Assembly: GCA_963769025.1 (NCBI GenBank)
Contig: CAVYKI010000002.1
Location: forward strand, 92,942-156,941
DNA: 64,000 nucleotides
Direction of reading: 5' to 3'
From: an uncultured Verrucomicrobiae bacterium
GTDB taxonomy: Bacteria; Verrucomicrobiota; Verrucomicrobiia; Chthoniobacterales; Chthoniobacteraceae
Shown in pieces: positions 1 to 42,792 of this stretch (positions are counted from its first letter, which is position 1; each line of letters opens with the position of its first letter). Below the pieces are notes generated by a model. The model worked only from the letters and a program-made list of their open reading frames with translations. It had not been told where the DNA came from and did not search any database. Both the position numbers and the translations under genes were made by a program.

Positions 1-34
1 TGACGGCAGCCGGCTTCTGGCGTTGCCTTGACTC

Positions 35-691
35 ATGAAAGCGTTCCTCCCTCTCGCTCTCGCCGCGGTTTTTGTCGCCGCTGCTTTTCCCGCTTCTGCG
101 CAGCAACGGCCGAGGAAGGGCGACCTTCGCATGCCGGACACCGTGCGCGTGGGCGACGCGGCACCGGACTTCAAACTGAAAACACTCGATGGTTCGCGTG
201 AAGTGCAGCTCTCCAGCTTCCGCGGCAAGCGGCCGGTGGTCCTTGTCTTCGGGAGTTACACCTGACCCCCTTTCCGGAGTCAGGTTGGCTCCATCGAGCA
301 GCTCTACGCGGACTACAAGGACAAGGCCGAGTTCTTCATGGTCTATATCAAGGAGGCTCATCCCACCGACGGCAGAGTGTCGCCAGGCAATGCGCGCGGC
401 GGGATCTCCATTCCCGATCCGAAGACGTATGCCGAGCGGGCCGATGTCGCGCACAAGGCATGCACGGAACTGAAAATCACCCTCCCGTGTCTCGTGGACG
501 GGATGAACGATGCCGCGAACAAGGCCTACGCCGCGTGGCCGGATCGGATCTACGTCGTGGATGCCACCGGGAAGATCGCGGTGAGAGGCGGGCCGGGGCC
601 GTCCGGTTTTGCGCCTTCGATCACCGAGACGCGGGTGTGGCTCGGCAAGATGTTTGGGCCGAAAGGCGCGGCGTCTCCCGGTTCCCGCTGA
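35..691 (+). CDS. Secreted iodothyronine-deiodinase-family (thioredoxin-fold) selenoprotein; in-frame UGA (Sec) at 263-265
   Basis: Track ORFs 35..265 and 338..691 share one frame. The only interruption is TGA 263-265, and codons 266-337 are open. The joined product reads ...RPVVLVFGSYT-U-PPFRSQ...FFMVYIKEAHPTDG...LVDGMNDAANKAYAAWPDRIYVV.... This matches the deiodinase active-site signature FGSxT-U-PPF and the downstream YIxEAHPxDG block. Signal peptide MKAFLPLALAAVFVAAAFPASA. A GGU-loop hairpin starts 10 nt after the UGA, and selD is adjacent. Confidence 0.85.
276..292 (+). promoter_or_regulatory. Candidate bacterial SECIS hairpin of the deiodinase-like gene
   Basis: GGAGUC-AGGUU-GGCUCC: a 6-bp stem (one G.U pair) with an apical loop containing GGU. 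It starts 10 nt after UGA 263-265, and the loop is about 16-20 nt from the UGA. Confidence 0.55.
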
Positions 692-708
692 CGCACTTTC
701 CGCGGCGG

Positions 709-1773
709 TCAGTCTTTGCCGGAATAGCGGACCGAGATCACCGAGGGGCCGCTGCGGACGATCTTGCCGATAACCGCAGCGCAGGGAGTGAGATGTTTTT
801 TCAAGAGCGCCAGCACGGCGGAGAAATTCTTCTGCGCGACGCAGAGAAGGAGGCCGCCGCTGGTCTGCGCATCGGTAAGCAGCGAACGGAAACGCTCCGG
901 CGTGCGATCCCAATCGGTGATCGCGTTGGCCGTTTCTTCATTCTGCCTGCTGCCGCCGGGCACGCATCCTTCGGCGATGAGCGAAAAGATTTCCGCGCTG
1001 ATCGCCGGGACGGATTCGGCGGTGATCTCCGCACTCACGCCGCTCGCGCGACACATCGAGGCGAGATGCCCGAGCAGGCCGAAGCCCGTCACATCCACCG
1101 CCGCGCGGACGAGTTCCTTTTCCGCAAGCACCGCGCCGCTGGAATTGAGCTGCGACATCAGCGTGATCACCTTTTTGCCCAGCGCTGCGGAAGCGATCTG
1201 CCGTTTGATTCCCGTCGTGGCGATGCCGGTGCCGAGCGGCTTTGTGAGCACGAGCAGATCGCCTATGCGGGCGCGGGCATTTGTCAGCATCCGCCTGGGC
1301 GAAACGAGCCCGGTGACTGCGAGGCCATAGATCGGCTCGGGATTCCGGATCGTGTGGCCGCCGACGATCGTGCAGCCCGCCTCGCGTGCCTTCATTGCGC
1401 CTCCGCGCAGGATGGCGGCGATGGCATTCGGCGGGACGAGATCCGGCGGGATGCCCATGATGTTCAGCGCGGTCAGCGGACGCCCGCCCATCGCATACAC
1501 ATCGGAGAGCGCATTGGCCGCCGCGATTTGCCCGTACTGCCGCGGGTCGTCCACGACGGGCGTAAAGAAGTCCACCGTCTGCACCAGCGCGATGTCGCGG
1601 GTGAGACGCCAGACGCCTGCATCATCGGCCGTGGAGGAGCCGACGAGCAGCCTGGGATCGTCGATGCGTGGAAGCTGGCGCAAGACTTGCGCCAGGGCCT
1701 GTTGGCTCAGCTTGGAAGCTCAACCGGCACAGGACGACAACTCGGTCAGACGGAGAATTGGTTTGCGGGACAA
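709..1773 (-). CDS. selD: Selenide, water dikinase (selenophosphate synthetase), Sec-containing form; UGA (Sec18) at 1722-1720
   Basis: Track ORF 709..1683 (LLVGSSTADDAGVW...TVDFFTPVVDDPRQYGQIAAANALSDVYAMGG...) is a SelD body lacking its N-terminus. Reading on upstream in the same frame gives M(TTG 1773)SRKPILRLTELSSCAG-U-ASKLSQQALAQVLRQ.... This is the GxG(C/U)xxK catalytic loop, with U at the E. coli Cys17 position and K three residues later. A 13-nt SD, AAGGAGGUGAUCC, lies 6 nt upstream of the TTG. Confidence 0.9.
1675..1695 (-). promoter_or_regulatory. Candidate bacterial SECIS hairpin of selD
   Basis: On the mRNA strand: CUGGCGCAA-GUC-UUGCGCCAG. The inverted repeat is a perfect 9 bp (8 bp if the loop opens to AGUCU). 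It starts 24 nt after UGA 1722-1720, and the apical loop contains GU. Confidence 0.6.
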
Positions 1774-1889
1774 ATGGATCACCTCCTTTCGATTTCCAAA
1801 AGACCGCTGGTCCGCCGAAAGCCAAGGAGAAACCTCGGCCCGGAGAATTCCCGTTTGACGGCCCCGTGGGACGAATCGACCGTGGAGCC

Positions 1890-3059
1890 ATGAAAGCAGC
1901 CATCGCCCTCACGTTGTTCGCCGCTCTCGCATGGACGCACGCCAACGGCGCGACGCTGAACGAGGAATTGTCCGGTTTTTCCAAGCGCTTCGAAGCCGCC
2001 CAGCCGTCCGAAAGCCAGCAGGCGATCTGGAAGCTCGACTGGGAGGATCACCTTTCCACCGCCCTCGCGCGCGCGAAAACCGAGCGCCGGCCGATCCTTT
2101 TCATCCACGTCACCAACATCTCCGGCCCGTCCTACTTCGGTGCCGGGCATTGTTGAGCAAATGCCGACCACGTGAGAGGCAGTTGCCTCTCCCACAGTGA
2201 CGCGATCGAGGCACTCAGAGGATTCATTGTCACGTCTTGGAGCGGTCACACCGACATGCGCGATCCGAAGGACATGCCGCCTGAAGTTGCGCGTGTGCAT
2301 GCCACGGCCGCGGGCACGCGTGTGAAAGGCAACATCAAGTGCTTCATCCTCGCACCCGACGGCGAGGTCGAGGCGGTGTTCAATGCGTTCCCAAACAACG
2401 ATGTCACCTCCTTCGGCTTCGACGCGGACGAAGCCGGTCGCTACTTTGCGAAGAGCATCCGGCATTTCTCGAGCGGACTGAAAATCCCCGATCCCGCGAA
2501 GAAGGATTCGCGACTTGCGCTGCCGAAGACCCTCCAGGACGGCACGCCGGCAGACGCGCGGCTCGTGCTTCATGTTTCGCCAAAATCGCAGCCGTCCCAA
2601 TACCGCGCCGCCGTGGCCGAACCGTTGCGGCTCGGAATCGAGGCCCGTTCCGCGCTGAGTGGAGGGGGGAAGCCGGTGAAGGAATCGGGCACGGTCGCGG
2701 CCAGTTCGCTCGCGACCGTGCTGAAGCTTTTCTACCCGCCGGCGATCATGCAGGAGACCGGCGAGATCAGCGCGGTCGCAGGGACGCTCAATCTGAGTCC
2801 CATCGGCGCCAACAGCGACGGCGCTTGGGCAAAACTCACCGGTTCCGCGACGCTCACGCTGGACGATGGTGCGGACACGAAGTTCCCCGTGGAAGTGGAC
2901 GCGCTGGTGCTCACGGATCCGGCCAGCGGCGCGTTCAAATCCGTGCGCGGCATTCTCAATGGCGTTTGTCCGAAAGTGGCTGGCAAAAGCGGACCCGGAC
3001 GGACGCATCAACTGGAAATGACCGGCACTTTCACGAGCCTCGACGCGGATTCGAAGTGA
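1890..3059 (+). CDS. Secreted thioredoxin-like protein with vicinal Cys-Sec (UGA at 2154-2156); candidate new selenoprotein
   Basis: Track ORFs 1668..2156 and 2172..3059 are in the same frame, separated only by TGA plus 15 open nt. ATG 1890 (GGAG 4 nt upstream) gives the signal peptide MKAAIALTLFAALAWTHANG. The N-terminal pattern W..L..AL.RAK.E.RPILF resembles Thioredoxin_7/DUF255-type domains, and the UGA sits in the expected redox position: ...YFGAGH-C-U-ANADHVRGSC.... A 7-bp hairpin starts 17 nt after the UGA. The gene is divergent from selD. Confidence 0.7.
2174..2191 (+). promoter_or_regulatory. Candidate bacterial SECIS hairpin of the Cys-Sec protein gene
   Basis: GAGAGGC-AGUU-GCCUCUC: a perfect 7-bp GC-rich stem with loop AGUU (contains GU), starting 17 nt after UGA 2154-2156. 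Confidence 0.6.
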
Positions 3060-3467
3060 TCGGTCTTGGTTCCGGACGTCCGGTCGCGGTGAGCAGTTCT
3101 GTTCAGCTCCCGAGGAGGCTTGAGGCGTTTTCCAGAACGTGTGCACCGGAGCGCCAAAGTATTCATGGCCGGTGTCTCAACCCCGGTTGACATGCAGAGG
3201 CGGTCTCCGTAGACAAAATCCCATGGGCAACAAACCGAACCCGTTCCTGATCGCCGATGGCGGGACGTTGATGGGGCGGTTCCTTCGGGCGAGTGCGGGT
3301 GTCCGTTTGGTCGAGGGCGCGTGCGGATCATTGGTGGGCGTTTATCCATTCAACACCAAGCCGCCGAGCACCCGGGCAATCGCCGGGTTCGTCGTCCGCC
3401 TTCCGCTTTGATGCGCACCCCGGCGCTTCCACGCGGCGTGTTTCCGAGGCTTTCCCGGTAGCAAAGC

Positions 3468-4391
3468 ATGAACTCCACAGACGGCATCCTCTTCAGTCTG
3501 ATCGTTCCGACGCTGAACAGGCACGACGACGTGGAGCGGTTGCTGGTGTCGATTGCCGGGCAGTCGTGCCGGGATTTCGAGGTCATCATCGTCGATCAAA
3601 ACGCGGACGATCGCCTCGGCGACCTATGCCGCGAGTTTGCGCGCCGCATGCCGCTGCTGCACCTGAAGGTGGAGTCGAAGGGGGCAGCGCGCGCGCGCAA
3701 CCACGGGCTTGGATTTGCAAAAGGTGGCATCATCAATTTTCCGGATGACGATTGCCAGCTCACGCCGGGATTGCTGGAAACCGTGGCCGCGCTCCTGAAG
3801 CAGAATCCTGACTGGGATGCGGTTTTCGGCCGCGCGATCGATCCGGTTTCAAAGGAAAGCTCAGTCACCAAGTTTGACTCGCGGGCGCAGTGGGTGACGC
3901 CAGGAAACGTCTATCAGACCACCGTGGAATTCACGATGTTCGCCAGACGATCGCTTTTCGACGAAGTCGGCCTGCTGGACGAAAATCTCGGCGTCGGGAC
4001 GTTTTTTGGTGCGGAAGAGGGCGCGGATTTTGTGTTGCGCGCGCTCTACAGGAAGAAGCGACTTTTCTACGACCCCTCGTTGCTGTTCTACCACGTGGAA
4101 AAAGTGGTCCGGTACGACGAGAAGGATCACGTGCGGGCGTACGAATATGGAAAGGGTTTCGGCCGCCTGTCGGTGAAGCATGCCCGGCTTTACCGGCAGC
4201 CGAGGGCTGCGCTGCGGTTCCTGTATCGGCTGGTGCGGGCCGCGATGGCGGTGGCGCTTTACCTCTGTCTGCTGAAGCCGAACCAGAGCAAATACTATCG
4301 CGAACTCATCCGCGGAAGGATGGTGGGAGTCTTCCGCTCCTGGAGCGAATTTGGGCGAAACGGCGCGGCCACGCTGCAGAAGAAATGCTGA
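3468..4391 (+). CDS. Family 2 glycosyltransferase
   Basis: N-terminus FSLIVPTLNRHDDVERLLVSIAGQSCRDFEVIIVDQNADD, then GAARARNHGL and FPDDDC (DxD-type). This is the classical GT2 GT-A pattern. Confidence 0.85.
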   Translation: MNSTDGILFSLIVPTLNRHDDVERLLVSIAGQSCRDFEVIIVDQNADDRLGDLCREFARRMPLLHLKVESKGAARARNHGLGFAKGGIINFPDDDCQLTPGLLETVAALLKQNPDWDAVFGRAIDPVSKESSVTKFDSRAQWVTPGNVYQTTVEFTMFARRSLFDEVGLLDENLGVGTFFGAEEGADFVLRALYRKKRLFYDPSLLFYHVEKVVRYDEKDHVRAYEYGKGFGRLSVKHARLYRQPRAALRFLYRLVRAAMAVALYLCLLKPNQSKYYRELIRGRMVGVFRSWSEFGRNGAATLQKKC

Positions 4392-4476
4392 ACGATCGCT
4401 GCCGGGAGGTTTGCGCGCGCCGGCCTTGCAACTTCAAAGCGAATAGACTTATGACTCCGTGAGCGCCAGTCCCCCG

Positions 4477-5652
4477 ATGAGAATCACCCTGAACGGCTAC
4501 TACGGCTTCGCCAATTACGGCGACGAGTTGTTCAATTTGACGACGGTCCTCGCCGCGCAGCGCTGGTGGGGAGGGCATCACGTGGACATCCTCGGTCCGC
4601 CGGTCCCGGGCATCGCGGCGGAATACCGGGTGCCGGCGTGGTTTCCCACGGCCCTCTACACTGGGCCGGGAGCGGTCGGGAAGGCGATCCGGCTGGCATT
4701 CTGTGCGGATGCGATGCTGCGGCGCGACTTACTCCTGTACGCAGGCGGTTCCACACTTTCATACGGCAGTATCCTCAAAAAAATCCAGAGGATCGCCGCG
4801 GAACGGAACTGCATCAAATTTGCCGGCATCGGCGTTTCCATAGGCCCGTTTGCAGATGCAGCGGACGAAGCGGAGGCCGCGCGTTTCCTTCGCAAGTTCA
4901 CCTGCATTTCCGTGCGCGACAGACGCTCGATGGACCATCTCCGGAAAATGGACATCCCGGTGAAGGCGTTGCTGGCGCGGGATCTCGTGGGTGCCCTGCC
5001 GCTCTTGCTGCCAGAGGGCGAAACCATGCAATCCGCCGGTGCAGGGAGCGCGCGCAAACCGCTGGGGATTTCACTCCGCGACTACGAGTGGCCCGATGCC
5101 GGAGACACGGCAGCCGCAGCTCGGAAGGAGGCGTTGTTCAAAGGCGTGGAGCGATTCGTAAAGCGCGAGCGGGTGCCGGTCCGCATTTTCTGCCTGAACA
5201 CCCACCCGCGTTCGGGGGATCAGGCGATGTCATCCCAGCTTGCGGAGCGCCTGACCCGGCAGGGCGCGGAGGTCGAGGTGATCAGCGCAAAGGACAACCT
5301 CCTCGGTTGCTGGCACGGGCTGGCATCTTGCTCCGCGGTATTCACCGTCCGTCTTCACGGTGCCATCACCGCGTACCTATGCGGTGTACCACTGGTCCAG
5401 ATCGAGTATCACGACAAGTGCACCGATCTGATGGATGACATCGGCCAGCACGCATCCTTGCGCATCGGCGGAGGCCATACCGATCCCGCGGCGATCGAGC
5501 AGGTCCTCGACCGGCTGTACCGTAACCCGCCGCCGCCGGCCTTGCCGCGAGAGACTTACATGGCCGAGGCCGCGTTGAACTTCACGCAGGTGCCATGGGC
5601 CACCGACCACGGAACGAAGGCGGCGGAGCATCCGGCGCAGCCCGCCCGGTGA
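4477..5652 (+). CDS. Polysaccharide pyruvyl transferase family protein
   Basis: MRITLNGYYGFANYGDELF... matches the N-terminal G..N.GD motif of PS_pyruv_trans/CsaB-like enzymes. The track ORF starts at GTG 4459; ATG 4477 gives the family-typical N-terminus. Start is uncertain. Confidence 0.75.
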   Translation: MRITLNGYYGFANYGDELFNLTTVLAAQRWWGGHHVDILGPPVPGIAAEYRVPAWFPTALYTGPGAVGKAIRLAFCADAMLRRDLLLYAGGSTLSYGSILKKIQRIAAERNCIKFAGIGVSIGPFADAADEAEAARFLRKFTCISVRDRRSMDHLRKMDIPVKALLARDLVGALPLLLPEGETMQSAGAGSARKPLGISLRDYEWPDAGDTAAAARKEALFKGVERFVKRERVPVRIFCLNTHPRSGDQAMSSQLAERLTRQGAEVEVISAKDNLLGCWHGLASCSAVFTVRLHGAITAYLCGVPLVQIEYHDKCTDLMDDIGQHASLRIGGGHTDPAAIEQVLDRLYRNPPPPALPRETYMAEAALNFTQVPWATDHGTKAAEHPAQPAR

Positions 5653-5807
5653 AACGGACAATTTCGACAATGTGGTTTGCTGCACTCACCACCCCGCAGA
5701 CCGCATCGGAATATTTCTGATCGCGGCGATTTCCACACCGAACCGATCGTGTCGCAAAAACTGAGTTTGAAGCCGGGAAACAAGGACGATGGAGGGATGT
5801 TAAACGG

Positions 5808-6932
5808 ATGAAACCAAATCTCGCCGAAGCAAGGGTAGCGTGGATCACCAGGCGCGAAGTGCTGGATGCCGATGCGCTCCCTGCCAATCATGCATGGGGA
5901 ACTGACGCCATTTTCTCGGCGGGAGCCAGGCGAGTGCAGCCGACGCGAATCCGGTGGATTGACGCGGTAGGAGCAAGGTTGCGCCTGGGGCCCAACCTCT
6001 CGGAACAGCTATGGCTCTTCTTTAACCAGAGAAAGTACGACTTCGTCATCGCCAAAGACACCGACCTGGTCTGCGTCCTCTGCGTCCTCCTCTGGTTGTT
6101 CCGGCAGAGCAAGGGGATATTCGCATTCCTCCACTTTCCGCTCCGGGTCTTCATCAAGGATTTTTTTCTGACGAAGCGTTGCAGCGTTCTCATGGCGCTC
6201 AGTGAAGAAATACACCGGCTTTCGCTCATCAGCTACCCCCGGGCAGCCCAACTTCTCAAAACCTTCGAATGGGCCGTCGATATTGAATTCTATGACCGGA
6301 TTCGCGCGGAACTGGATGCCGGTGGGCAGATCGAATCCGCAGGTGCTCCGGTGCCTGACGGCAAACTCCGCATTCTCCTCGTTGGGATCACCGGCAGGAA
6401 GTTCGCCTCATTCCTGGAGGCGACCGTTGCAGATCGGGATGTCGAAGTCCGGGTCGTGACCGATTCACCCGATGTGCTGCTTCAGATCCAGAGCCTCCCA
6501 AACTACACCCCGGTGCGGACGGAGCCGGATAAACCGGTAACCTATCGCCAACTTGTCGCGCAGTATCTCGCATGCGATGTCGTCGCCATTCCGCTGGAGA
6601 TCAAGGATGCTCCCGACGACGAACTTATCAGGCACCGGGCGACGCTTTGGGGAATCACCACCCTACTCGAAGCATCGGCCCTCGCGAGACCGGTCGTGAT
6701 GACCTTTAATCCGGTTCTAGGCTTCGACGTTGGCAGCCTGGAATGTGGCCTATGCCTCCGTGAGGACGACGCCCTCCATTGGAAAAAAGCGATCCAGTGG
6801 TGTCGCGGGCACAAGGCGTCGCTCAAGGCCATGGGTGAGCAGGCCAGGCGTAACGTCGACGAGTACTACAATTTGCGTTGCTTCCGGGAGCGGCTGAAGA
6901 CGACAATTGAAACTTACTATGCCAGTCAGTGA
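5808..6932 (+). CDS. Putative GT-B type glycosyltransferase (GT4-like C-terminal domain)
   Basis: Intact 374-aa ORF in a visibly AT-richer stretch. The C-terminal part (...WGITTLLEASALARPVVMT...GLCLREDDALHWKKAI...ARRNVDEYYN) resembles the nucleotide-sugar-binding half of GT4 enzymes. I did not recognise the N-terminal half. Confidence 0.55.
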   Translation: MKPNLAEARVAWITRREVLDADALPANHAWGTDAIFSAGARRVQPTRIRWIDAVGARLRLGPNLSEQLWLFFNQRKYDFVIAKDTDLVCVLCVLLWLFRQSKGIFAFLHFPLRVFIKDFFLTKRCSVLMALSEEIHRLSLISYPRAAQLLKTFEWAVDIEFYDRIRAELDAGGQIESAGAPVPDGKLRILLVGITGRKFASFLEATVADRDVEVRVVTDSPDVLLQIQSLPNYTPVRTEPDKPVTYRQLVAQYLACDVVAIPLEIKDAPDDELIRHRATLWGITTLLEASALARPVVMTFNPVLGFDVGSLECGLCLREDDALHWKKAIQWCRGHKASLKAMGEQARRNVDEYYNLRCFRERLKTTIETYYASQ

Positions 6933-7019
6933 CGCAACCTGGAATGGCCGGAACGAACCTCGCATCCACGCCAAGTTGGCCAGTCCGAAGGCTGCCGATG
7001 CGTTTGGATAAGGAGAAAC

Positions 7020-8381
7020 ATGCAGTTGCTTTTGCTTAGTTTGTTCTTTCTGGCGACTGTTACGTCCTCGTGGGACTTAATCGGAGTGCTCGACGTTGCC
7101 GGAGGAAATCTGCGCATTTGTTCCTTCTTCATGGTGAGTTTCATCGCGGCATCCATGATTTGCTTCAAGCCGAGTCGCGTACCCCGCGTCCGCGGATTTG
7201 TTCTTCTGCTGATTTGGTTTGGGTTCAACTTGGTTGGCGCCACGAATGCGCCTCAAGTTTTTCGAACGTATGCGTATCTCGTCTGGCTGACTCTTGACGT
7301 CGCCCTGGTCTTTGCGTGTGCAGCGGCCTTCAGGACTCCGCGAGACCTAGCCACCCTTGCGCGTTGGAACTACTACAGCTTCATCCCAATCTCGTTGTTT
7401 GGGTTGATCCAGTTTGCTGCCTATCCGCTTGGCATCAATTTGCTGGTAAAACAAACTTGGGTCTCGGTTCTGGCGCGGATTAACGGATTCTCCTACGAGC
7501 CTTCCTACTACTCGACATACATGATTGTCGGTTGGGCCATGTCCTTTGTGCTCCTCGTGCGGGGTGTACATTTTGTCCGTCCGGCGTTGAGTTGGGCTGT
7601 CTTTGGAATGCATACGGCCGTTCTTGTCCTTTGCAGCTCGCGGATTGGCTACCTCGGCATGGGAGTAATGGGCTTGGTCATGGCCCCGACAATCCTGAAA
7701 TCCTTCCGAACCTCCCGGACGAGCAGGATTTTGACATCTGTAGCGGCTCTTGGCGCGGTGGTTTTGATTGGCGGCGGGGCGGTTCTCCTCATGAGTGTCA
7801 AAGATACGCCACTTCTGCTCGAGGGGACCGGCTTGGGTGGGACAGCGGCACACTCCGTGGATCAGCGTATGGCTGGAGTCGAACTATACGAGGAATTGTT
7901 CATGGCCAACCCGTTGAAAGGCTACAGTGTGGGCGGCATCGCGGCGCAAATCGCGGGGGCGGACGGGTCCATGTCCATCGATTACGAGGCCATGCGACAA
8001 AGCCAGGGGTGCAACGTTTCGCTCGAAATCCTGCTGGCTACGGGCATCGTTGGGGCGCCGTTTTTTTTCTGGTACTTTTTCAAGCTCACCTTTGCCTCGC
8101 TCAGTCGAATCCGCACCGTTGCCGATGCGCGCATGCGTGCAATATGTGCCGCCAATATCTGGGGCCTTATCATGCAGTTTTTCCTGCTGCAATTTAACCA
8201 AAATATCTTGCGTAACTATTTTTGGATCCAAATCGCGGTGGTGTCTTGTCTTGTGACTCACGCCTTGCGCCAAAGGCGTGGAGAGCATGCACTCCCGGTC
8301 CATCATTCGCGGTCATTCCAGGCGGAGCGCGAGCACGCACCGCTTCCGGAGGCGGCCAATCTTTCCATTCCGCGAGCATGA
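7020..8381 (+). CDS. O-antigen ligase/polymerase-like (Wzy-type) integral membrane protein
   Basis: 453 aa, with about 10 or more hydrophobic segments, a large loop (...GTGLGGTAAHSVDQRMAGVELYEE...) and AAGGAG 7 nt upstream. It sits between glycosyltransferases in a Wzx-containing locus, in AT-richer sequence. Confidence 0.7.
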   Translation: MQLLLLSLFFLATVTSSWDLIGVLDVAGGNLRICSFFMVSFIAASMICFKPSRVPRVRGFVLLLIWFGFNLVGATNAPQVFRTYAYLVWLTLDVALVFACAAAFRTPRDLATLARWNYYSFIPISLFGLIQFAAYPLGINLLVKQTWVSVLARINGFSYEPSYYSTYMIVGWAMSFVLLVRGVHFVRPALSWAVFGMHTAVLVLCSSRIGYLGMGVMGLVMAPTILKSFRTSRTSRILTSVAALGAVVLIGGGAVLLMSVKDTPLLLEGTGLGGTAAHSVDQRMAGVELYEELFMANPLKGYSVGGIAAQIAGADGSMSIDYEAMRQSQGCNVSLEILLATGIVGAPFFFWYFFKLTFASLSRIRTVADARMRAICAANIWGLIMQFFLLQFNQNILRNYFWIQIAVVSCLVTHALRQRRGEHALPVHHSRSFQAEREHAPLPEAANLSIPRA

Positions 8382-9463
8382 AGATTTTGTTTGATGCCCG
8401 TTGCCTCATGCAGCCTACGACCGGCATCCAGGTCGTCGCTCGCAATCTGCTCGCCGAGTTGTCGCGCTCGGACATGGTTGACGAACTTGTTGTCCTCGCA
8501 GGGCCGGAAGTCGACATCGGCGACGGAGCGTCGGATTGCGAGTGCGTTCGCACAGGGATCGGCCCATATGATTTTTTCCGGCAGCGAGAGGTGGCGCGGT
8601 TGATCAATCAGACGGAGGCGGATATCCTGCTCTCGCCAACCTATTTCATTCCGTATGGCGTGAAGAAGCCTTACATCATGATGGTCCATGATTTGATCCC
8701 CCGGAAGATATGGCTCGGGCGGCAGTCAATTTATTACCGCTGCCTGCTTGGGGAACGCATGCGTTCTGCGCTTGGGATATGGACGGTTTCGAATTACTCG
8801 CGCCGGGAAATCCTCTCCACCAATGCGAATTTGGATGCGCGGGTCCAGGTATTGCCGTCTGGTTATACGAGCGCTCCAGGCAGTGCGGCGCCTTTGTGCA
8901 AGCGGCGCGAGCTTCTGGTCTTCGCGAGCCGGTTTCGCCACAAGAACATCTCGTTTGCCATCCGCGCGTTCGAAGCCCTGCAGGCGATTTCAGGCAAGGC
9001 TTGGAAGCTGCATGTGGTCGGCAACCTTTCGCACATGCAGGACGCTGCGTTTCCGGAAGGCGTTTCCCTTCGGGGCCGTGTGACGGACAGCGAACTCACC
9101 GAGCTTTACCGGCAGTGCTGGGGTGTGTTGCTTCCGTCTATGGAGGAAGGGTTCAGCCTGCCGTTGATCGAGGGCATGAGCCATGGCTGCGTAGTCTTTT
9201 ACCATCGTCATACGGCGATGAGCGAAACTGCCGGCGAGGCGGGGGTCGGGCTTGATTTGGGGCGACCCGAAGAATGGGCGCAAGCGATCATCGCAACTGC
9301 GGCGGGTGACGGCGAGGCGGAGGCGCACCGGGATCGGGCACGGAAGCGCGCTGCGGAATTTTCAAGGGAGCGCTTTGTCTCCGCATTTCACGGGGCGCTC
9401 AGCCGGACTTTGGAGGGTTTGCCGTTCGGAACCGGAGCAACGCGGAAACATCATTCAAAATGA
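8378..9463 (+). CDS. Family 4 (group 1) glycosyltransferase
   Basis: MKILFDARCLMQPTTGIQVVARNL... N-terminus, and a C-terminal EEGFSLPLIEGMSHGCVV (E-x7-E-like) motif. The ATGA overlap with the upstream stop supports ATG 8378 rather than the track start 8222. Confidence 0.8.
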   Translation: MKILFDARCLMQPTTGIQVVARNLLAELSRSDMVDELVVLAGPEVDIGDGASDCECVRTGIGPYDFFRQREVARLINQTEADILLSPTYFIPYGVKKPYIMMVHDLIPRKIWLGRQSIYYRCLLGERMRSALGIWTVSNYSRREILSTNANLDARVQVLPSGYTSAPGSAAPLCKRRELLVFASRFRHKNISFAIRAFEALQAISGKAWKLHVVGNLSHMQDAAFPEGVSLRGRVTDSELTELYRQCWGVLLPSMEEGFSLPLIEGMSHGCVVFYHRHTAMSETAGEAGVGLDLGRPEEWAQAIIATAAGDGEAEAHRDRARKRAAEFSRERFVSAFHGALSRTLEGLPFGTGATRKHHSK

Positions 9464-10599
9464 GCAACGTCGCGCTGGCTCATCATTGGCTCATCAGCAT
9501 GCGTGGAGGTGAACGCGTGCTGGAAGAGATGTGCGCGCTTTTTCCCGACGCACCCGTCCACACTCTCGTCGCGCAGGTCGATCGGCTCAGTGCCCGGATT
9601 GCGGCGCATCGCATCGTTCCTTCGCTGCTCCAGCGGCTGCCCGGGGCGACGCGGCACTATAAAAAACTGCTGCCGCTTTTCAAATTCGCGATCCCGCGGA
9701 TGCGCGTGGCGGCGGAGACGCAGTTGGTTTTCAGCTCCGACGCGAGCATGATCAAAGGGCTGAACGTGCCGCCGGGAGTGCCCCATGTCTGCTATTGCCA
9801 CTCGCCTCCGCGTTACCTCTGGGATCTGCACGAAACGTACATGAAAGGCAGTGCGGAGATCGGCGCGTTCGGGCGTTTTGTGTTCCGGCACGTGCTGGCT
9901 TCCGCGCGCGCCTTTGACCTTGCGGGCGCGAAGAAGGTTACGCACTTCATCGCCAATTCCGCCTTCGTCCGGGAGCGCATCCGGCGGATTTACGGCCGTG
10001 AATCGGTGGTGATTCATCCGCCGGTTTCGGTGGATGATTTTTCGGCGGAGCGCCCGCGGAAGGACTTTTTCCTGCTCGTCTCCGAAATCACGCCCTACAA
10101 GCGCGTGGACCTGGCGGTCGAGGCGTTCCGGCGGAATGGCCGGCAGTTGGTGGTAATCGGAGACGGTTCCGAGATGGCCGCGTTGCGGGGGAGCGCCCCT
10201 TCCAACGTGACTTTCCTCGGGCGCCAGTCCTTCGCCGTGCTCAAGGAGCACCTGGAGACTTGCCGGGCATTCGTCTTTCCGGGGATTGAAGATTTCGGCA
10301 TTGCGCCGTGCGAAGCGCAGGCGTCTGGCGCGCCGGTGATCGCCTTTGCCGAGGGTGGCGCGCTGGAGACGGTGAAGGACGGGGTGACTGGCGTTTACTT
10401 CGCCGAGCAGACGCCGGATGCGCTCGTCGCGGCGCTGGAACGGTTTGAAGCACTCCCGCCTTTTAGCCCCGAGGTCTGCCGCGTCAATGTCGAGCGGTTT
10501 CGCCCGGAGCAGTTCCGCCGCGCCATTCGCGAATATATGGCTTCGGAATTTCCGCGGTTTTTCGCCAGCTACCCGTGGCCTGAGGAGGGGAAACCGTAG
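9460..10599 (+). CDS. Family 4 (group 1) glycosyltransferase
   Basis: HHWLISMRGGERVLEEM... N-terminus and EDFGIAPCEAQASGAPVIAFAEGGALETV C-terminal motif. ATGA overlap with the upstream gene. Confidence 0.85.
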   Translation: MSNVALAHHWLISMRGGERVLEEMCALFPDAPVHTLVAQVDRLSARIAAHRIVPSLLQRLPGATRHYKKLLPLFKFAIPRMRVAAETQLVFSSDASMIKGLNVPPGVPHVCYCHSPPRYLWDLHETYMKGSAEIGAFGRFVFRHVLASARAFDLAGAKKVTHFIANSAFVRERIRRIYGRESVVIHPPVSVDDFSAERPRKDFFLLVSEITPYKRVDLAVEAFRRNGRQLVVIGDGSEMAALRGSAPSNVTFLGRQSFAVLKEHLETCRAFVFPGIEDFGIAPCEAQASGAPVIAFAEGGALETVKDGVTGVYFAEQTPDALVAALERFEALPPFSPEVCRVNVERFRPEQFRRAIREYMASEFPRFFASYPWPEEGKP

Positions 10600-42716: not shown

Positions 42717-42792
42717 GCCAGTATAGCTCAGTTGGTAGAGCGCTCGATTTGTAATCGAAAGGTCGCGGGTTCGAATCCCGCTGCTGGCTCCA
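42717..42792 (+). tRNA. tRNA-Thr (anticodon UGU), CCA encoded
   Basis: Manual cloverleaf: acceptor GCCAGUA/UGCUGGC (one G.U pair), D arm GCUC-AGUUGGUA-GAGC, anticodon arm CUCGA-UUUGUAA-UCGAA (27:43 C-A mismatch), variable AGGUC, T arm GCGGG-UUCGAAU-CCCGC, discriminator U, then CCA. Confidence 0.9.

Follow-up and report, generated by a model that had tools for sequence, protein, structure and literature searches.

Bacterial deiodinase-like selenoproteins were described from the Sargasso Sea together with homologues carrying cysteine (Cys) and with bacterial selenocysteine insertion sequence (SECIS) elements (Zhang, Fomenko and Gladyshev 2005, PMC1088965). They were counted again in the Global Ocean Sampling (GOS) survey in 2008, and reviews of prokaryotic selenoproteomes from 2022 and 2026 list the deiodinase-like family with its function unknown. 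Here we describe a member that is encoded by an open reading frame (ORF) at the beginning of a 64,000-nucleotide stretch of bacterial DNA (contig CAVYKI010000002.1; the whole stretch is referred to as the window), probably from a representative of the Verrucomicrobiota. Like the described bacterial proteins, the window protein belongs to PF00837, has relatives in selenocysteine (Sec) and in Cys form, is encoded with a bacterial SECIS-like element after the UGA codon and is presumed to act in redox chemistry. The reviews give a UxxC motif for the family, whereas the window protein, the Sec forms retrieved here and most homologues carry U/C-P-P-F with no Cys at position +3, as do the animal enzymes. 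The window copy lies inside an island of genes for the Sec machinery; neither such a location nor export of the protein is mentioned in the papers searched. Taking the whole explanation together, we consider it very likely that the gene encodes an exported, Sec-containing bacterial deiodinase-like enzyme of PF00837 with a redox cycle of the deiodinase type. This is the correct annotation of a known family rather than a discovery, and it would not surprise a specialist. An earlier interpretation made from the DNA letters (the sequence-only reading) had stated that bacterial deiodinase-like selenoproteins are known while their substrate is not, which matches the literature since 2005. The novelty that it implied was overstated, since the family has been catalogued since then, close homologues are named 'deiodinase-like protein' by NCBI and metagenomes contain Sec forms in abundance.

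By sequence and by fold, the best counterparts of the window protein are the vertebrate deiodinases Dio1, Dio2 and Dio3. Shared with them are the FGSxTUPPF motif, the relay residues Ser, Thr, Tyr, Glu and His, the deiodinase insertion and an N-terminal hydrophobic segment that targets the catalytic domain; in addition, the distal Cys205 of Dio2 is aligned with Cys152 of the window protein. On the other hand, the identity is only about 30% and the thyronine-binding residues are replaced. The N-terminal membrane segment of the animal deiodinases serves as an anchor, whereas a cleavable signal peptide is predicted for the window protein, and the SECIS element of the vertebrate genes is located in the 3'-untranslated region, in contrast to the bacterial in-frame kind of the window gene. 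Thyroid hormone is not expected in bacteria (PMC1088965). Two further groups are related more distantly. The peroxiredoxins AhpE and Bcp/PrxQ have the same thioredoxin/peroxiredoxin-like fold with the nucleophile at the N-terminus of the helix that follows strand β1, and a cycle with a resolving cysteine, as in peroxiredoxins, has also been proposed for deiodinases (PMC11592359). Their matches to the window protein are, however, much weaker than those of the deiodinases, the window protein contains an insertion with invariant Tyr, Glu and His, and the usage of Sec and Cys differs. The TlpA/ResA oxidoreductases are exported proteins with a thioredoxin fold and appear among the structural neighbours, but the window protein has no CxxC or UxxC motif.

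For all protein searches with the 218-residue translation, Sec77 was entered as Cys. The Pfam family T4_deiodinase (PF00837) was matched with an E-value of 1.7e-34 and 119.6 bits (cut-off 27), and the alignment pairs residues 31-206 with positions 67-236 of the 237 profile positions. With HMMER, the best sequence matches in the PDB were mouse Dio2 (9h48, E = 7.1e-25) and mouse Dio3 (4tr3, E = 1.2e-23), and the next match was weaker by about seventeen orders of magnitude. In these alignments FGSYT-U-PPF of the window protein is paired with FGSATCPPF of Dio2 and FGSCTCPPF of Dio3, VYIKEAHPTDG with VYIDEAHPSDGW, and D-MndaAnkAY...R.Y.V...GGpGP with the corresponding stretches; the deiodinase insertion is aligned throughout with a single gap of three residues. 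Since both crystal structures are those of Sec-to-Cys mutants, the TGA of the window gene falls on the catalytic residue. The iodothyronine-deiodinase-like identity of ORF 35-691, which the sequence-only reading had deduced from alignments by eye, is thus confirmed, because HMMER reproduced every one of those alignments. Of the checks named there beforehand, the T4_deiodinase search gave the score quoted above, and the UGA column proved to be the catalytic Sec/Cys position, both by the alignment with Dio2 and Dio3 and by the Cys of the homologues. A search of the protein database returned 128 homologues, and a profile search returned 812 cluster representatives at E <= 1e-30. Membership in the NCBIfam family NF038285 ('deiodinase family protein', deiodinase_rel) was considered and rejected. 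The catalytic domain of the window protein matches model positions 177-337 of 347 (208.7 bits), but the score lies below the 250-bit cut-off; the model describes a longer architecture, whose N-terminal half of about 176 positions is missing from the 218-residue protein.

The fold was judged from an AlphaFold model of the closest Cys homologue, P0001, which is 64% identical to the window protein (predicted local distance difference test, pLDDT, 90.1; predicted template-modelling score, pTM, 0.83). A Foldseek search of the PDB with this model placed Dio2 (9h48, E = 6.6e-14) and Dio3 (4tr3, E = 2.1e-13) on top, with a TM-score of 0.79 for each when normalised to the target. They were followed by ResA/TlpA-like proteins, AhpE and Bcp, whose E-values are four to five orders of magnitude weaker. 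Homology shows the predicted fold to be of the Dio2/Dio3 type, i.e. a peroxiredoxin-like thioredoxin fold with the deiodinase-specific insertion.

ORF 35-691 contains one internal in-frame TGA, at codon 77. A start upstream of the ATG at position 35 is ruled out, since there is an in-frame TGA at positions 29-31. Among 120 database homologues, nearly all full-length proteins have Cys in the catalytic column (FGSYTCPPFR). Many others are truncated, either to an N-terminal part that stops at FGSYT or to a C-terminal part of about 120 residues, and a few have W, R or L in the column; both the split pieces and the W, R or L entries are attributed to gene callers that met an in-frame TGA. At six independent split-gene loci the DNA was read, and each contained the identical in-frame TGA. 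When metagenomes were scanned with a degenerate DNA pattern encoding F-G-S-Y/F-T-TGA-P-P-F-R, at least 120 stretches matched. The loci examined comprise 87 further distinct Sec forms, all of which stay in frame past the TGA and 85 of which keep the downstream EAH motif or a variant accepted by the script. The reference genomes were scanned with a TGC/TGT pattern, which yields Cys forms only (53 loci). On one metagenome contig, L143, two Sec-form deiodinase-like genes lie about 1.6 kb apart (1593-1621 on the minus strand and 3230-3258 on the plus strand).

The closest locus for comparison is L191, which over positions 1-6804 is syntenic with positions 21-3134 of the window (85.7% identical DNA). 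In the codons 3' of the TGA the two genes differ by 25 synonymous and 24 non-synonymous changes, while we would expect a ratio of about 1:3 in untranslated sequence. This excess of synonymous changes indicates that translation goes on past codon 77. The L191 orthologue has exactly the length of the window gene and likewise ends in TGA; since both genes end in this codon, TGA is an ordinary stop in the organism. From these comparisons, whose agreement goes far beyond chance, the UGA at 263-265 is very probably recoded as Sec.

Downstream of the UGA, a hairpin at the position that corresponds to 276-292 of the window is found in most of 88 Sec forms. The mean fold energy at this position is -11.2 kcal/mol in the 88 Sec forms versus -7.4 kcal/mol in 48 Cys forms of similar G+C content (Mann-Whitney p = 3.3e-9), and a hairpin is missing from the closest Cys forms (-2.7 and -1.1 kcal/mol), although their encoded peptide is almost identical. 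When the stem is kept in a fixed register, 74% of the cells pair, compared with 55 +/- 1.5% after column shuffling and 40-56% in shifted registers. At two stem pairs GC and CG are exchanged in roughly equal numbers among the Sec forms, and the loop has G, G and U in 78, 72 and 62 of 87 sequences, respectively. Such features serve to define bacterial SECIS elements (PMC1088965). When positions 260-320 of the window were folded alone, another structure had the minimum energy and the z-score of -0.92 was not significant; a search of the window with Rfam at gathering thresholds returned no SECIS family and only a tRNA-Thr, a result to which we give little weight. It is the comparison across Sec and Cys forms that makes the hairpin convincing. 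It has the form of a bacterial SECIS element and is a candidate recruiter of SelB. A stable hairpin is also retained at the SECIS position of two Cys-form loci, L012 and L016 (RRQMGEVE and RRQVGEME; -10.8 and -10.5 kcal/mol), which may be recent Sec-to-Cys conversions.

Roles were assigned to residues by transferring, through the HMMER alignment with Dio2 and Dio3, those described in the Dio2 structure paper (PMC11592359). The proton relay proposed there includes the residues equivalent to Tyr197, Glu200 and His202 of Dio3, with which Tyr104, Glu107 and His109 of the window protein are aligned. From the relay set of Dio2, consisting of Ser127, Thr129, Tyr157, Glu160, His162 and His182, five of six residues are present (Table 1). 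G73, S74 and F80 do not vary across 32 homologues, and conservation reaches at least 90% at T76, C/U77, P78 and P79. Ser74, Thr76, Sec77, Tyr104, Glu107, His109 and Arg135 occur in 71 of 71 Sec forms, Asp155 and Arg171 in nearly all of them. Homology shows a predicted catalytic core, made up of these nine residues, that is intact. The replacements affect residues to which thyronine recognition or a place in the outer part of the relay has been ascribed. Since the hormone-binding residues are absent, the substrate is presumably not thyroid hormone, and the substrate pocket would differ from that of Dio3.

Two cysteines are candidates for the resolving thiol. Among 71 Sec forms, 51 hold a Cys in the column of Cys143 or in the adjacent alignment column, and exactly one other Cys is present in 52. 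Cys152 is kept in eight of the 71, all of them the closest relatives of the window gene; its counterpart, the distal Cys205 of Dio2, forms a selenenyl-sulfide (PMC11592359).

Residues 1-22 have the make-up of a signal peptide, with a basic MK start, a hydrophobic core of 16 residues and the sequence A-S-A before the QQ with which the mature protein would begin. The best 12-residue Kyte-Doolittle mean is 2.7 and 22 consecutive residues are uncharged. Since there is no Cys among residues 1-22, it is not a lipoprotein signal. The N-terminus of the P0001 model has low confidence (pLDDT about 55). Of 87 full-length homologues, 77 have an N-terminal hydrophobic segment that resembles a signal peptide or, where it is longer, an anchor, so that the bacterial deiodinase-like family appears to be generally exported or membrane-anchored. 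The signal peptide claimed by the sequence-only reading is consistent with both observations. The nearest named relatives come from Opitutaceae for the deiodinase-like protein and from Chthoniobacteraceae for the second neighbour downstream (ORF 1890-3059, here ORF3). As these bacteria have two membranes, the destination of an exported protein would be the periplasm. Hence, the protein is probably exported via the Sec translocon and would reside in the periplasm as a mature enzyme of about 196 residues.

Table 1. Positions of the features discussed in the text (nucleotides of the window) and counterparts of deiodinase residues in the window protein
Feature	Position	Strand	Remark
Deiodinase-like selenoprotein, coding sequence	35..691	+	218 codons including Sec77; ATG at 35, stop TGA at 689-691
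Predicted Sec-type signal peptide MKAFLPLALAAVFVAAAFPASA, residues 1-22	35..100	+	cleavage expected after A-S-A
Active-site motif F72-G-S-Y-T-U-P-P-F80	248..274	+	aligned to FGSATUPPF (Dio2) and FGSCTUPPF (Dio3)
UGA codon, very probably read as Sec77	263..265	+	Cys in homologues; catalytic Sec of Dio2/Dio3
SECIS-like hairpin GGAGUC-AGGUU-GGCUCC	276..292	+	stem 276-281/287-292; begins 13 nucleotides after the U of UGA
Start of deiodinase-specific insertion, Y104-IKEAHPTDG-R114	344..376	+	carries Tyr104, Glu107 and His109
Cys143, candidate resolving thiol	461..463	+	most conserved additional cysteine of the family
Cys152 in P-C-L-V-D, second candidate resolving thiol	488..490	+	aligned to distal Cys205 of Dio2
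selD (selenophosphate synthetase)	709..1773	-	NCBIfam TIGR00476, 376 bits versus cut-off 125
ORF3, second exported candidate selenoprotein	1890..3059	+	389 codons; TGA 2154-2156; motif GAGHC-U-ANADHVRGSCLSH
Counterpart of Dio2 Ser127	Ser74		conserved
Counterpart of Dio2 Thr129	Thr76		conserved
Counterpart of Dio2 Sec130	Sec77		conserved
Counterpart of Dio2 Tyr157	Tyr104		conserved
Counterpart of Dio2 Glu160	Glu107		conserved
Counterpart of Dio2 His162	His109		conserved
Counterpart of Dio3 His219 (Dio2 His182)	Pro129		replaced; Pro in 65 of 71 Sec forms
Counterpart of Dio3 Asp211	Gly118		replaced
Counterpart of Dio3 Phe258	Pro169		replaced
Counterpart of Dio3 Glu259	Asp170		replaced
Counterpart of Dio3 Arg275	Pro187		replaced
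Counterpart of Dio3 Trp207	Arg114		replaced here; Trp in 60 of 71 Sec forms

From these features we propose the following sequence of events. The hairpin at 276-292 would recruit SelB with Sec-tRNA, so that UGA 263-265 is decoded as Sec; genes for the required machinery surround the gene, with selD adjacent in the window and tRNA-Sec, selA and selB immediately upstream in L191. The signal peptide of 22 residues would then take the unfolded protein through the Sec translocon. By analogy with deiodinases, the selenolate of Sec77 would attack an electrophilic atom of the substrate, and the network of Tyr, Glu, His, Ser and Thr would provide the proton for the leaving group. The resulting Se-X intermediate could be resolved by Cys143 or Cys152 to give a selenenyl-sulfide, from which a periplasmic thiol reductant would regenerate the enzyme. 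In our reading, the protein may thus be described as a periplasmic selenol reductase with a peroxiredoxin-like cycle.

As to the class of substrate, we tentatively suggest small halogenated phenolic compounds, from which iodine or bromine would be removed reductively. Peroxide reduction is possible but doubtful, and much the same applies to any other chemistry; halogenated aromatics are slightly favoured over peroxides. Three arguments underlie this lean to halogen chemistry. Firstly, the conserved elements (the edges of the insertion, EAHP.DGW and ER) set deiodinases apart from ordinary peroxiredoxins. Secondly, the Sec:Cys ratio of the family is unusually high: the GOS survey counted 22:21 Sec and Cys homologues for deiodinase-like proteins, as compared with 253:7,348 for peroxiredoxins and 40:3,287 for glutathione peroxidases. 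Thirdly, the exchange of Sec for Cys costs deiodinases activity, which becomes about 1000-fold lower (PMC11592359). Ten long homologues (455-913 residues) were inspected for fused domains. Calcium-binding EF-hand repeats just before the deiodinase-like domain are present in seven of the ten, one has a fusion to TPR repeats and one a CMD/AhpD-like fusion (the long homologues with EF-hand or other fusions that were tested include P0142, P0143, P0181, P0189, P0192, P0206 and P0260). No substrate was identified from the domain fusions of these ten proteins.

Several points weigh against an exported enzyme of the deiodinase type. The signal peptide was called by a rule-of-thumb hydropathy heuristic, and the fold was modelled for the homologue P0001 rather than for the window protein. 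In the literature we found no experimental study or assay of a bacterial deiodinase-like member. The replacements at the positions of Dio3 His219, Asp211, Phe258, Glu259 and Arg275 (Table 1) remove the hormone-binding residues of the animal enzyme. A universal resolving cysteine was considered and rejected, since Cys152 is confined to the closest relatives and the Cys143 column is common yet not invariant. All-against-all clustering of the ORFs around 184 loci revealed no recurrent partner gene; apart from the gene and the frames that overlap it, only some local synteny was shared. The remaining points concern peroxiredoxins. The Pfam families AhpC-TSA (49.1 bits, cut-off 26) and Redoxin (45.7 bits, cut-off 26.6) are matched above their cut-offs, although more weakly than T4_deiodinase. 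The arrangement Ser74-x-x-Sec77 together with Arg171 resembles a peroxiredoxin site, and the CMD/AhpD-like domain mentioned above is fused to one homologue.

These last points are also the basis of the strongest alternative, namely that the protein is a periplasmic selenol peroxidase, i.e. a peroxiredoxin in practice, and that deiodination is an innovation of animals. Hydrogen peroxide or an organic hydroperoxide would oxidise Sec77 to a selenenic acid, a Cys would resolve it and a thioredoxin-like protein would reduce the product. Besides the two Pfam matches and the AhpD-like fusion, a peroxiredoxin-like fold, the presence of the 1-Cys peroxiredoxin AhpE and of Bcp among the structural neighbours of the P0001 model and the generic redox role assumed in the literature (PMC1088965) fit such a peroxidase. 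In our own motif reading, Ser74, at position -3 relative to Sec77, and the invariant Arg171, which precedes a β-strand, would correspond to the Thr/Cys/Arg set of peroxiredoxins. Against it stand the deiodinase insertion and its Tyr/Glu/His network, which are invariant here and missing from ordinary peroxiredoxins, and the Sec:Cys ratio near 1:1, as Cys forms dominate 30- to 80-fold among peroxiredoxins and glutathione peroxidases. Dio2 and Dio3 are, moreover, far closer than any peroxiredoxin, both by sequence and by fold. We regard the peroxidase as a serious rival, possible but rather unlikely.

A thiol-disulfide oxidoreductase of the TlpA/ResA type, acting in the periplasm on a protein substrate, for instance in the maturation of cytochromes or copper proteins, appears improbable. 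ResA and TlpA-like proteins are structural neighbours with weak sequence matches, they are exported as the window protein appears to be, and many homologues have been named 'thiol-disulfide isomerase/thioredoxin' by the Joint Genome Institute (JGI). But the CxxC or UxxC motif that defines such proteins is replaced by U-P-P-F with an invariant Phe80, the NCBIfam model for ResA scores 37 bits against a cut-off of 170, and genes for cytochrome maturation or for DsbD/CcdA are not recurrent beside the gene in the neighbourhoods of the 184 loci.

The genomic setting bears on a further alternative. In the window, selD and the deiodinase-like gene are convergent with a gap of 17 bp. SelD, too, is a selenoprotein: TGA 1720-1722 lies in the motif SCAG-U-ASK, the Sec of which we take to occupy the position of Cys17 in Escherichia coli SelD. 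Three adjacent genes, coding for the deiodinase-like protein, SelD and ORF3, thus each contain an in-frame TGA. The order in L191 is a Rdx/SelW-like gene, tRNA-Sec (145-241), selA, selB, the deiodinase-like gene, selD on the reverse strand and ORF3. By this synteny, the spacer between selB and the deiodinase-like gene starts a few bases before the window does. Within the 64-kb window itself no tRNA-Sec was found, the sole tRNA gene being a tRNA-Thr (TGT) at 42717-42792 on the plus strand, and tblastn with the L054 proteins gave no match for selA or selB. In L054 and L090, which represent two other sub-groups of the family, selD, selA and selB are located upstream of the deiodinase-like gene and tRNA-Sec is close; selD is also near the gene in L076, L113 and L144. 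A sel gene was seen at only 4 of 120 loci from the metagenome scan, many of these contigs being short, at none of the 53 Cys-form loci and in none of five other Sec-form neighbourhoods that were read directly and that differ from one another. The Pfam-annotated neighbourhoods vary among Sec-form loci as well. Of the claim that the gene stands next to selD, the adjacency holds, but the specific pairing does not, as the gene belongs to a whole Sec-machinery island.

This location would be accounted for if the protein handled selenium for the Sec machinery, for example by periplasmic reduction or capture of a selenium compound to feed SelD. The gene directly follows selB, with selD and tRNA-Sec close, in L054, L090 and L191, and by synteny with the latter also in the window; the proximity of selD in L076, L113 and L144 and the lack of sel genes at the Cys-form loci point in the same direction. 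The rarity of sel genes in the metagenome scan and their absence from the five other neighbourhoods do not agree with such a function, and Cys forms exist in genomes without any sel link. Selenoprotein genes often travel with sel genes, being transferred together, and joint transfer accounts for the linkage with no need of a shared function. We consider a role in selenium supply very improbable. In our reading, the sel linkage may reflect a selenoprotein gene travelling with its decoding machinery and would not be evidence for a shared pathway.

Least of all, and with a negligible chance of being correct, the TGA could be a true stop or disabling mutation that leaves a broken gene (35-265 and 338-691), or a Trp or Gly codon of a variant code: homologues split into N- and C-terminal fragments by gene callers, the few W, R or L entries and a hairpin that is unremarkable in the window sequence taken alone would fit, but the same-codon TGA with protein conserved on both flanks recurs in 87 further distinct sequences from many lineages, the column holds Cys rather than Trp or Gly in homologues, synonymous changes are over-represented 3' of the TGA, the downstream hairpin is conserved and covaries, TGA also terminates the window gene and its L191 orthologue, and genes of the Sec machinery adjoin the gene.

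ORF3 is a fresher and more novel lead than the deiodinase-like gene. The local motif around its TGA is GHC-U-ANADH, and a perfect hairpin of 7 bp (GAGAGGC-AGUU-GCCUCUC, 2174-2191) begins 20 nucleotides after the UGA. In L191, L187 and L188 the TGA is conserved together with its flanks on either side and the hairpin. No Pfam or NCBIfam match was obtained for ORF3, and many selenoprotein families of the 2026 review have an NCBIfam model. Its database relatives form only 12 clusters, all of them hypothetical fragments that start after the TGA, one from Chthoniobacteraceae. ORF3 may thus represent an undescribed selenoprotein family. Directly 3' of the deiodinase-like gene of L054, an ORF with an in-frame TGA (8371-9645, PLGCT-U-NNGVAG) has a signal-peptide-like start; in a single comparison it showed weak similarity to the N-terminus of ORF3 (E = 0.002), with the U positions aligned. 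After the selenoprotein genes, the window continues with a polysaccharide biosynthesis cluster (3468-9463, plus strand), which contains a family-2 glycosyltransferase, a polysaccharide pyruvyl transferase, a group-1 glycosyltransferase and, by a weak match below the cut-off, a Wzy/O-antigen-ligase-like membrane protein.

Animal deiodinases control the action of thyroid hormone, and their bacterial relatives have been known for twenty years while their role has not. The analysis adds a residue-level contrast between a catalytic network that is conserved and hormone-binding residues that are not. It also adds that the Sec form is abundant outside the ocean and lies inside a cluster of Sec-machinery genes in several lineages. 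The window copy is suited as a test case, because it is short and without extra domains, with an intact core, a well-supported Sec signal and a predicted export signal; its close Cys relatives can be expressed without Sec machinery. It is conceivable, though unlikely, that soil and freshwater bacteria, Verrucomicrobiota among them, share a transferable Sec island (tRNA-Sec, selA, selB, the deiodinase-like gene, selD and ORF3) whose main client is the deiodinase-like protein, and that this protein would act as an exported selenium-dependent reductive dehalogenase of natural iodinated and brominated aromatics, ancestral to the thyroid-hormone deiodinases of animals. If the enzyme were indeed a selenium-dependent dehalogenase, this would be relevant both to how thyroid-hormone metabolism arose and to how natural organohalogens are turned over.

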